Shown here in pieces: positions 18,001-21,000 of a stretch of DNA of 64,000 nt. Position 1 is the first letter of the stretch; the number at the start of each line of letters is the position of its first letter. Origin of the DNA: Candidatus Latescibacterota bacterium (GTDB lineage Bacteria > Latescibacterota > UBA2968); contig OZ242195.1 of assembly GCA_965205975.1 (NCBI GenBank), positions 1,088,001 through 1,152,000 on the forward strand. Direction: 5' to 3'. The position numbers are program-made.

Positions 18001-21000
18001 GATGCGCTATTTGTGGCACCCTTATGGGAGTCATGCTGGTCGTGCCTGGCATTTTTTGGGTGAGATTGGTGTGGCATTTTTGGATGAGATTCCCGAAGCG
18101 GAGGAGTGGGTGTGGTTCGCGATGAATGTGTTTGGTGCGGTGTATCCCGCGTGGTGCGATGAAGATGGCGGCTGGCACCAGGGATTGCAATACTGGGAGA
18201 GTTATGTTCAGCGCTTTACGTGGTGGGCAGATATCATGCAGGCGGCAATGGGGATTGATGCGTATTGCAAACCGTATTTTGCACGCGCTGGCGATTATCC
18301 GATGTATTTTCAGCCTCCAGGTACGCGCGGGGGTGGCGTGGGCGATTTGACGACGACGAGAACATCGGATCAGAATTGCGATTTGATGCACACTCTGGCG
18401 GCTCAGGCGCGCAATCCATATTGGAAGTGGTATGTGGATATGCACCCGCAGAAAGAGAAAGAGGGTACGAGAGCGCGCAGGTTGGATGCCGTGGGTGCCG
18501 GGCGGTCGCTCTATATTGATTTTGTGCGGGGGGCATTGCCAGAAGTGCGCGGGGAAGCGCCGGTGGATTTGCCTGCTTCAAAATGTTTTCGCGGTACGGG
18601 GTTGGTGGCGATGAATTCGGATTTGACGGATGGGAAAAACAATGTGTCGGTCATTTTTAAGAGCAGTCCATTGGGGTCACAGAGTCACGGTTTTGACGCG
18701 CAAAATTCATTTTCGCTATTTGCTTTTGGCGAGCGGTTGTTGATTCACACGGGCCAGCGCGATATTCACGGCAGCGACCACCACAAGAATTGGATGCACC
18801 ATACAAGATCAACCAATTGCATTGGGGTAAATGGCGAGAGTCAGTTGTGCAATCACGCGGCGGCAACGGGTGAAATTCTGGATTTTCAAACGTCGGATGT
18901 ATGTGATTATGTGGCTGGCGAAGCCGCCCCGGCTTATGGGGGGAAGCTGAAAAAATTTACGCGGCAGATTTTGTTTGCCAAACCCGATGCGGTGGTGATT
19001 TACGATACGGTGGTGGCACCTGAGGCTTCGATATTTCAGTATTATTTGCACGCTGAAACGGAGATGGCTATCGAGGGTCAGACACTAAAAATTACAACGG
19101 GTGATGCGGGCTGTGTGGTGTCTCTGCTGCGTCCTGAAAACTTGAAAATCAGTCAGACAGATCAATTTGATCCACCGCCGAGAGAACGCGTTCAACTCAG
19201 AGAGTATCACGTGACGGCAGAGACACCGATACCGCAGGAAGAGACCACATTTATTGCGGTATTGCGACCGCACAGGACGGGGGCTGTGCCCAAAGGTGAT
19301 CCCGTTTTGATGGATGATGGAACGCTAATGGTACCATTGCCCGATGGCGAGTTGAAGGTTTGGGTGGGCGAGACATTGCGCGCTGAGAAAAGGGATCAAA
19401 AAGGTGTTGTGGTGGCAACTTTGCCTTGAGGTGAATCCTTGAACACTGTTAATGGAGGTGTGGCATGATGCTCAAAGAGATGACAAATTCCGCTTCGGCG
19501 TTGACGGACGAGACATTTGAGGCGTTGTTCGAAGCCTGCCGGCCCCAAAAGGAAGGGTGGACAGATATTCCCTGGATCGGAGAACTCTGGAAGGGGCGAC
19601 AGAAGGCGGCGCGCGAGGAGAAACCACTGTTCATCTGGGCGATGAATGGTCATCCTCTGGGGTGTACGTGAAATAACGGGGTTACGGGCCGTGCGCTCGT
19701 TTTTTCAGATCCGCGCGTGATTGAGTTTTTGAATGAACGGTTTATCCCTGTGGCTGTGAACAATACCCGATTGCAGCGACAGGCCGATGATGAGGGTCGG
19801 TTTTTGCGCCTGATCTCCTGGCAAGGGCGGTACGGGTATTCTTTTGAGGAAGCACGGGCCAGATTGGAGGATATCGATCACGGGCTGAATCATCAGGGTT
19901 TATATGCAGTGACAACAGAGGGGGAAGTGTTGGGTAGTCGCAACAGGCTATTTCCGGGTGGCAAGCTTCCTGTACATGGTGTTGGTAGCGATCCAGACCA
20001 ATTTTTGTGGATGTTGAGACGGGCGCTGGAGAACTGGGAGAACCGCAAGACCCAGCGCGAGACATTGGAAATCGAAGATTTGGCGTACCGGGATCCCACA
20101 TTTAGCTGGATGGGGTATCCTGAAGAGGGATTGGTTTTACATCTGGGCGTTCGGGACCTGCCCCGGGAGGTGGATACGCGGCCTTCGGGAATGAAGCGAG
20201 AGGCGCACAATCAGGATTACGTCTGGTTTCGACGGGAAGAGGTGCTGTCTATGATTCCACTGGATGCAGTTGCGGGCGATGTTATTCCCGTGCCCGATGG
20301 GCTGGTCAGACGGCTGGTGCGTTATCATCTGGCGGATTATGTCCGAGGGGAAACGTCTTCGTGGCCATCCGAGGCGATCCGAGATGCGTCTATGACGTTG
20401 ACGGTGACTGAGGAGACACCGGAATGGGTTAATTTAAGGCTTTCCGGATCCGCGCAGTTGCTCTCGGAGGGGAGTTGGTACGAGGGCGTGTGCCAGGAGC
20501 GAGGGCTGGATGCATCGCTGTTGGGTTATCTCCGTTTTGATCGACGGACGGAACAGTTCGTGAGATTCGATGTTGTGGCGGTGGGATCGAGATGGGGTGG
20601 CACGGACTACAACGTACGGCAGGATGATCTGGAGCCTGCACCTATCGGGATTGCGATGACGATTGCTGGGAGGGAGGCGAGGGATCGCACAGCTCCGCAT
20701 GCGTGCCAGAGTCGAGGTGGTCTGGAAAGGTATTTTAATGCGTGATTTGATAGTTGGGATGTGTTTTATTTAAAAAAACTCGGCTCTTGCCGAGTTTTTT
20801 GTTTTTTCTCCACGATTTTTTATCTGAGGGAACGCCCGACCAGAGATACAGGTCTAATAATTCAGGGCCGAAGGGAGTAACCAATCCACCGGAGAAAAAA
20901 ATGACCAGATATACACATAAATCGCCTGCTTCTATTGACCGAAGGGATTTTATCCACCTGGCCGGTCTTGGCGTAATGGGCGCGCTTGTTCTGGGGCTGG

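Follow-up and report, generated by a model that had tools for sequence, protein, structure and literature searches.

A bacterial selenoprotein family that is probably a domain-permuted relative of Selenoprotein N

A Selenoprotein Gene Divided by Standard Annotation

The window analyzed here is a stretch of 64,000 nucleotides from the genome of a Candidatus Latescibacterota bacterium (contig OZ242195.1, positions 1,088,001 to 1,152,000), and coordinates below count from its first nucleotide. Translation of positions 19468–20745 on the forward strand yields a single frame of 425 amino acids that is interrupted by one internal stop, a TGA at codon 68 (19669–19671), which is flanked by the peptides GHPLGCT and NNG. 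The start may instead be at 19465, as tandem ATG codons at 19465 and 19468 lie 6 or 9 nucleotides downstream of a Shine-Dalgarno-like GGAGG in the sequence (19454–19458, +). Standard gene calling produces a 67-amino-acid piece (g01015) and a 342-amino-acid ORF (g01016; 19717–20745, +), and with translation table 11 the downstream ORF alone is called, from a GTG at 19717. Relatives have been treated in the same way, since 128 of the best 150 library matches (counted by eye) start after the selenocysteine (Sec) column, in agreement with the preliminary description of these proteins as truncated and hypothetical. A terminator-like hairpin with a T run follows the gene at 20773–20800 (+), although two such sites against 1.4 expected by chance make this feature weak alone.

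The AlphaFold2 model of the 425-amino-acid protein has a pLDDT of 93.3 and a pTM of 0.91. A Pfam scan of the protein gave no match, and the sole NCBIfam match, to NF041383, is far below threshold (19.5 bits versus a cut-off of 275), which bears out the earlier claim that the family lacks a model in either collection. Contigs from RNA libraries of close relatives span the TGA in four runs from three studies among the matches listed, which suggests that these genes are transcribed, with the caveat that RNA libraries can contain DNA. The Latescibacterota form has no signal peptide and probably resides in the cytoplasm. Forms from Planctomycetota look exported; by a crude heuristic, a hydrophobic N-terminal stretch is present in 22 of 22 Planctomycetota-titled genes versus 0 of 40 Latescibacterota-like ones.

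The gene is preceded by a DUF4962/heparinase II/III-like gene (17078–19429, +) and followed by a sulfatase gene (longest ORF 20754–22469, +). These neighbors are present as originally noted, but the proposed tie to the use of sulfated polysaccharides is not supported: among 80 homologous loci, the heparinase-like gene recurs beside three and the sulfatase beside five (four close relatives), and the neighbors in other lineages are unrelated. No signaling or metabolic gene was seen to recur beside the homologues. Thus, the gene is not a fixed component of a polysaccharide cluster.

The gene run at 20754–32001 includes two sulfatases, YHYH proteins, a PhoD-like phosphatase and others, and several of its genes carry dockerin/EF-hand-like repeats. 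Two ORFs in this run (22500–23723 and 23227–25164) overlap in different frames, and each encodes a PKD-like and a YHYH domain, possibly reflecting a duplication with a frameshift or a wrongly chosen start.

The Internal TGA Is Conserved

A search of 168 genomes of the host phylum gave 52 matching rows from 45 genomes. The motif is covered by 47 of these rows, each of which carries a TGA; the remaining five are fragments lacking the N-terminus. Earlier work on this gene had reported 47 matches with exactly one TGA each; the TGA is indeed in all 47, but only 43 contain exactly one stop, the other four showing a second stop in matches that extend to query residues 422–426. The TGA occupies the identical codon in 29 of 29 motif-covering loci, and also in all 80 loci fetched from records titled Latescibacterota, Poribacteria, Planctomycetota, Chloroflexota or Armatimonadota, so that the reported constancy of its position extends to five phyla. 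Because Sec-clade patterns were used to find the 80 loci and the set is therefore biased, profile searches independent of the motif were also run. Among 151 Planctomycetota-phylum genomes, TGA is present in 67 of the best 68 matches (counted by eye). Altogether, TGA stands at the Sec column in 111 of the 113 distinct two-domain genes that were checked, with the 80 loci of the biased set among those examined for this count. While the terminal stops of the 80 loci differ (TGA, TAA or TAG), the internal stop is invariably TGA.

Comparison of 11 close relatives reveals 99 synonymous versus 42 non-synonymous changes before the TGA and 240 versus 94 after it. Synonymous changes number only 10 in 165 codon comparisons just 3′ of the TGA, versus 240 in 1,320 comparisons farther downstream, although the relatives compared are not independent. 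Some homologues replace Sec. The count given previously for seven aligned long database homologues was reproduced, with Cys at the Sec column in six and Trp in one (P0068); proteins with Cys at this column are P0071–P0078, P0093, P0161 and P0169. In a wider alignment of 15 full-length database homologues, only seven have Cys there.

A Covarying Hairpin and Sec Machinery

A hairpin located downstream of the TGA (19684–19700, +) has a 6-bp stem and a 5-nucleotide loop with G and then U at loop positions 2 and 3, and the loop lies 18 nucleotides after the UGA. Bacterial SECIS elements are defined, in the accessible part of a 2026 catalogue of selenoproteins, by a loop of 3–9 nucleotides, a stem of 4–16 bp, a G in the first two loop positions, a distance from UGA to loop of 16–37 nucleotides and an MFE of at most −7.5 (PMC13188914). 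The hairpin agrees with this definition in its loop, stem, G at position 2 and spacing, and the folding term for the alignment is −8.58 kcal/mol. The 6-bp stem emerges from the alignment only, since the single-sequence MFE fold of the region from the gene itself prefers another structure.

Pairing is retained in 108 of 108 stem cells across 18 sequences, with 19 double changes distributed over three base pairs, and these stem changes alter amino acids. None of 500 shuffles equaled the observed pairing, slid controls reached at most 68%, and RNAalifold recovered the same hairpin unprompted. Across the 80 loci, 468 of 480 stem cells are paired, whereas a strict hairpin rule is failed by 16 of 111 genes, which are diverged. 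The selD gene of the host carries a hairpin of the same geometry, a geometry that follows 115 of 13,865 TGA contexts in open frames.

The host genome encodes selA, selB, selD and tRNA-Sec (selC), all scoring above curated cut-offs, and the selA and selB frames are free of internal stops. In the Planctomycetota phylum, selA was found in 40 of the 41 genomes whose top match is the TGA form, versus 72 of the other 110 (by-eye counts on genomes that are incomplete and include non-independent kin). The single top match without TGA comes from a genome in which no selA was found. The frame, codon conservation, hairpin and Sec machinery all agree with the original proposal that g01015 and g01016 are one gene read through a UGA, and on these sequence data the two annotated genes almost certainly represent one selenoprotein gene whose TGA is recoded as Sec.

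A T run comes after the hairpin, giving a terminator-like score to 19684–19706, and the two could attenuate transcription at low selenium; the T run is not retained beyond close relatives. Elsewhere in the host genome, TGAs with SECIS-like hairpins are found on G000:C1 at 4439674 (+), 3042949 (+), 1533907 (−), 3546124 (−) and 3426376 (−). These belong, respectively, to a SelW-like CxxU protein, a UxxC protein, a peroxiredoxin-like UxxC protein, a U-G-A-C protein and selD, the first four named by eye.

A Thioredoxin Domain with Sec at the Attacking Position

Residues ∼27–195 (19546–20052, +) form a thioredoxin-fold domain of the DsbD-gamma/DsbH/AGR2-3/DUF255 class that is related to Selenoprotein N (SelN). 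Fold comparison thereby upholds the initial assignment to the DsbH/DsbD-gamma/DUF255 class. Sec68 (19669–19671, +) aligns with the first, attacking Cys of the thioredoxin CxxC when compared with 3ira and 3f9u. Cys66 (19663–19665, +), located two residues before Sec, is a candidate resolving cysteine. The GC-T-U motif named in the preliminary description exists in the host gene, and its C-x-U spacing recurs in 88 of 111 TGA-bearing genes, but it is not universal, as 11 genes have adjacent C-U and 12 have no Cys. The second CxxC position is Gly (U-N-N-G), and the protein therefore has neither CxxC nor UxxC. In our alignment, the column of the cis-Pro that is usual in disulfide-exchange enzymes appears to hold His or Arg.

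HHalign comparison of the thioredoxin domains of this family and of SelN-type proteins gave probabilities of 95.4 and 98.3, with Sec aligned on Sec. There is very little doubt that this domain belongs to a SelN-related group. An N-terminal helix in the AlphaFold2 model (residues 14–24; 19507–19539, +) probably corresponds to the linker helix found ahead of the thioredoxin domain in proteins of SelN order, which would place the permutation point just before this helix. The only other match of the family profile in the host genome (L120; G000:C1:1432217–1432429, −; E = 0.007) corresponds to a CxxC thioredoxin domain in a YyaL/DUF255-type protein, named by eye.

The C-Terminal Domain Resembles the Middle Domain of SelN

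The beta-rich C-terminal domain spans residues ∼215–425 (20110–20742, +) and had no clear match among solved structures. A connection to SelN emerged from several searches. In the ESM Atlas, the best match of the Cys homologue P0076 is a cluster named “Selenoprotein N” (0.91, 195 of 256 features, 98% eukaryote). When 121 genomes of the Poribacteria phylum were searched with a broad profile of the family, TGA-bearing genes were matched in most of them through the thioredoxin part; in the proteins encoded by ten fetched regions, a beta-domain precedes a thioredoxin domain that carries DE[AS]C-U-G. Two animal proteins were recovered with a profile built in this order, that of SelN: P0365 from a sea star (E = 8.9e-45, 96% cover) and P0367 from an oyster (E = 3e-23). 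Both have a transmembrane segment and an EF-hand, and P0365 also has a SCUG-type site, which are features of SelN in the part of the source available (PMC12839072). On these grounds we assign P0365 as a SelN, although its source name, like that of P0367, is merely “EF-hand domain-containing”. When the SelN-order profile was run against the 151 Planctomycetota-phylum genomes, its best non-SelN match was a member of the present family (E = 4.2e-9).

The C-terminal domain aligns by HHalign with the beta-domain of SelN-order proteins at a probability of 85.5 (E = 5.7e-6, score 41.5, 98 columns; profiles of 53 and 37 sequences), with residues ∼258–371 on the middle beta-domain of SelN. The corresponding controls gave 15.8 for a reversed profile and 22.9 for an unrelated beta-rich domain, and 120 shuffles, 40 each at block sizes of 1, 8 and 15, had maxima of 17.5, 23.8 and 30.0. 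With a match that stands above these controls, the earlier description of this domain as unknown calls for revision. The C-terminal domain is likely to be homologous to the SelN middle beta-domain, which would make the family a domain-permuted relative of SelN: the order is beta-domain then thioredoxin in SelN, and thioredoxin then beta-domain here.

An alternative that we consider unlikely is that only the thioredoxin domain is shared, such that this is a new bacterial Sec-thioredoxin family whose beta-domain resembles that of SelN through a convergent strand pattern, with no permutation. Comparison of the C-terminal domain with the two animal sequences alone is not significant (probability 0.5, score 15.6), no SelN is among the three Atlas matches listed for this domain alone, all of which are bacterial hypothetical clusters, and shuffles of 15-column blocks reached a score of 30. 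Moreover, a large number of other Planctomycetota thioredoxin domains with a TGA are about equally near to SelN. Against convergence, the match runs in order over its 98 columns, which comprise a Pro-x-x-x-x-x-Gly-x-x-Trp/aromatic segment, then a helix and then three strands, and its probability rose as profiles became richer, from 2.9 with thin profiles through 7–34 with intermediate ones to 85.5. Single-sequence HMMs also match the two domains in both directions (best E values 1.3e-5 and 3.1e-4, from small sets), and the joint presence of the same two partner domains in both families is improbable by chance.

Many members from Latescibacterota loci L051–L070 have additional cysteines, among them a Cys-Cys pair, within a C-terminal-domain loop that is shortened in the host protein. 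It is possible that these form a second redox or metal site.

Phylogeny and Distribution

In trees of the thioredoxin domain, SelN-order proteins and the sea star protein form one clade (support 97 and 99) from which the family is excluded, and the family is a SelN-like module outside the SelN family proper. A clade of family plus SelN was not resolved in these trees and is not rejected (p-AU 0.40), as is likewise true of a grouping of SelN with other Sec-thioredoxins (p-AU 0.37). Because their deeper order lacks resolution, neither the direction of permutation nor a bacterial origin of SelN can be derived from the thioredoxin trees. The DsbD-gamma/DsbH/DUF255/AGR2-3 class is the outgroup to the Sec-bearing domains (SH-aLRT 95 and 77 in two trees).

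The family comprises 748 clusters at 50% identity (E < 1e-30). SelN-order genes occur in 1–9 copies in 31 of 41 Poribacteria genomes (E < 1e-30), and none was found in the 168 genomes of the host phylum. A thesis is said to have described a SelN orthologue in Poribacteria, that is, a protein of SelN order and not of the permuted family.

Several further groups of genes came to light. The SelN-order expansion in the Poribacteria phylum (L159–L168; for example L164:1730–15102) often takes the form of tandem arrays, with at least eight genes in L164, and many of these genes have an extra C-terminal domain or are fused to an ECF sigma factor. This expansion is absent from the accessible part of the 2026 catalogue (PMC13188914). 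Five SelN-order selenoprotein genes (L209–L213) are present in the 151 Planctomycetota-phylum genomes. Also in this phylum are more TGA-bearing thioredoxin-domain families akin to the SelN domain (L192–L207 and L215–L232), with motifs such as DEEFC-U-ANG, DGGL-U-SAG and DGKT-U-SA, some of which have Cys-type counterparts (L223, L231).

Proposed Function and Alternatives

We propose, with a probability of roughly 0.7, that the protein is a selenol oxidoreductase whose beta domain binds the substrate, and that it is a permuted module of the SelN type. SelB and Sec-tRNA, whose components are encoded by the host, would bind the hairpin at 19684–19700, and Sec would be inserted at the UGA. At the attacking position of the thioredoxin fold, Sec68 could then attack disulfides or similar oxidized thiols as a selenol nucleophile, reducing or exchanging them, and Cys66, where present, would probably resolve the intermediate, as might the adjacent Cys in the SCUG site of SelN. 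The tightly packed beta-rich C-terminal domain, the putative counterpart of the SelN middle domain, most likely binds a substrate or partner. For the activity itself, thiol-disulfide oxidoreductase is our preferred assignment from the sequence, if by a modest degree.

It is less plausible that the module acts as a redox or ligand sensor, with oxidation of Sec or binding of a ligand by the beta-domain altering a partner, as SelN is described as doing with SERCA. A scan of 21 long or full-length homologues showed fusions of the whole module to Ser/Thr kinases (four), FecR-type anti-sigma domains (two) and an ECF sigma factor (one), and ECF sigma factors are fused to SelN-order proteins as well. 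Several non-Sec homologues lack any motif Cys, and Planctomycetes retain several diverged paralogues per genome. However, Planctomycete kinases and sigma factors bear many unrelated add-on domains, the host gene and most members stand alone with no recurring signaling neighbor, and the near-invariant Sec fits catalysis equally well.

More doubtful still is a small-molecule substrate, such as a peroxide, halogenated aromatic or sulfoxide, used in the manner of glutathione peroxidases or deiodinases. The U-N-N-G motif, whose second CxxC position lacks Cys, the seeming absence of cis-Pro, and a pocket that the conserved polar residues R282, H287, D290 and Q143 could form are all compatible with such a role, but neither family nor fold searches connect the protein to peroxidases or deiodinases, and no metabolic neighbor recurs. 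Finally, we regard it as highly improbable that the TGA is a true stop (in two genes or a pseudogene) or encodes Trp or Gly under another code, despite the GTG at 19717 and the Trp in P0068, which may reflect a gene caller applying code 4: a stop would sever the thioredoxin fold at its active site, the codon is never TAA or TAG in the 80 loci, the selA and selB frames of the host are intact and many homologues terminate in TGA, and the covarying hairpin, Cys homologues and co-occurrence with selA also speak against this alternative.

In the reading that we prefer, the oxidoreductase family and SelN would both descend from one ancestral redox module of two domains, which they carry in different orders. 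We also slightly favor the view that eukaryotic SelN derives from a bacterial two-domain Sec module of the Planctomycetota/Poribacteria type, with the EF-hand and membrane anchor acquired later, such that soluble bacterial forms share the chemistry and fold of SelN within a large, overlooked superfamily.

Relation to Previous Surveys

Mutations in SELENON cause congenital myopathy. Searches of solved structures found no SelN chain, and neither a family nor a function is assigned to its middle domain; the bacterial proteins would therefore offer a soluble model. The relative described here is soluble and probably cytoplasmic, and with the natural Cys variants P0076 and P0161 it makes both fold and redox chemistry testable.

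SELENON is treated as an algal and animal protein in the accessible text of one survey (PMC7539508). Table 1 of the 2026 catalogue, which covers 119 prokaryotic selenoprotein families, contains neither a SelN-like family nor such a motif (PMC13188914), and together with the Pfam and NCBIfam results this supports the original claim of novelty as far as that table extends. Within the portions available, deep-Sep does not contain the family by name, and the NCBIfam models of its hypothetical families gave no match (PMC12013277); no description of the family was found in the abstract and part of the supplement of BSepDB (PMC13326102), or in passages and Table S9 of PMC4807772, where three unnamed or thioredoxin-like candidates are known by listing alone. 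Our literature search found no account of the family or of a permuted SelN, although subscription papers, theses and supplements may hold one. Because the family is large, mostly mis-annotated and missing from the 2026 catalogue, Planctomycetota, Poribacteria and Latescibacterota have far more extensive selenoproteomes than those on record. The family may be a further example of a “eukaryotic” selenoprotein that has its roots in bacteria, in this instance with permuted domains.

Comparison with Known Systems

The family resembles SelN (SELENON/SEPN1) in its related thioredoxin domain, in the column occupied by Sec with a Cys just before it, in a beta-rich domain that is related at the profile level only, and in belonging to no Pfam family. 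Planctomycete members look exported, a location comparable to the ER lumen where SelN resides. In contrast, the order of the two domains is reversed, and the main clade carries C-x-U-N-N-G (C-T-U-N in the host protein) instead of the S-C-U-G of SelN, with adjacent C-U in 11 of 111 genes. The host protein has no Pfam EF-hand (the homologue P0186 carries one at its C-terminus) and no hydrophobic N-terminus or membrane anchor, the SECIS element is of the bacterial, in-frame type and not in a 3′ UTR as for SelN, and the family falls outside the SelN clade in thioredoxin trees.

Bacterial SelN-order proteins of Poribacteria and some Planctomycetota have the same two domains, the same Sec column and fusions to ECF sigma factors, but differ from the family in their SelN order, their DE[AS]C-U-G motif and an often present extra C-terminal domain. 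Proteins of the DsbD-gamma/DsbH/DUF255 (YyaL)/AGR2-3 class (3f9u, 2ju5, 3ira and 3ph9) share the thioredoxin fold, but have CxxC where the family has U-N-N-G plus an upstream Cys, and lack the beta-domain. The VPGUxxT selenoproteins (NF041382/NF041383) are likewise bacterial Sec-thioredoxins of the same fold class, with a weak HMM match to residues 33–103. Their motif and C-terminal part differ from those of the family, and the match of 19.5 bits is well short of the cut-off of 275.
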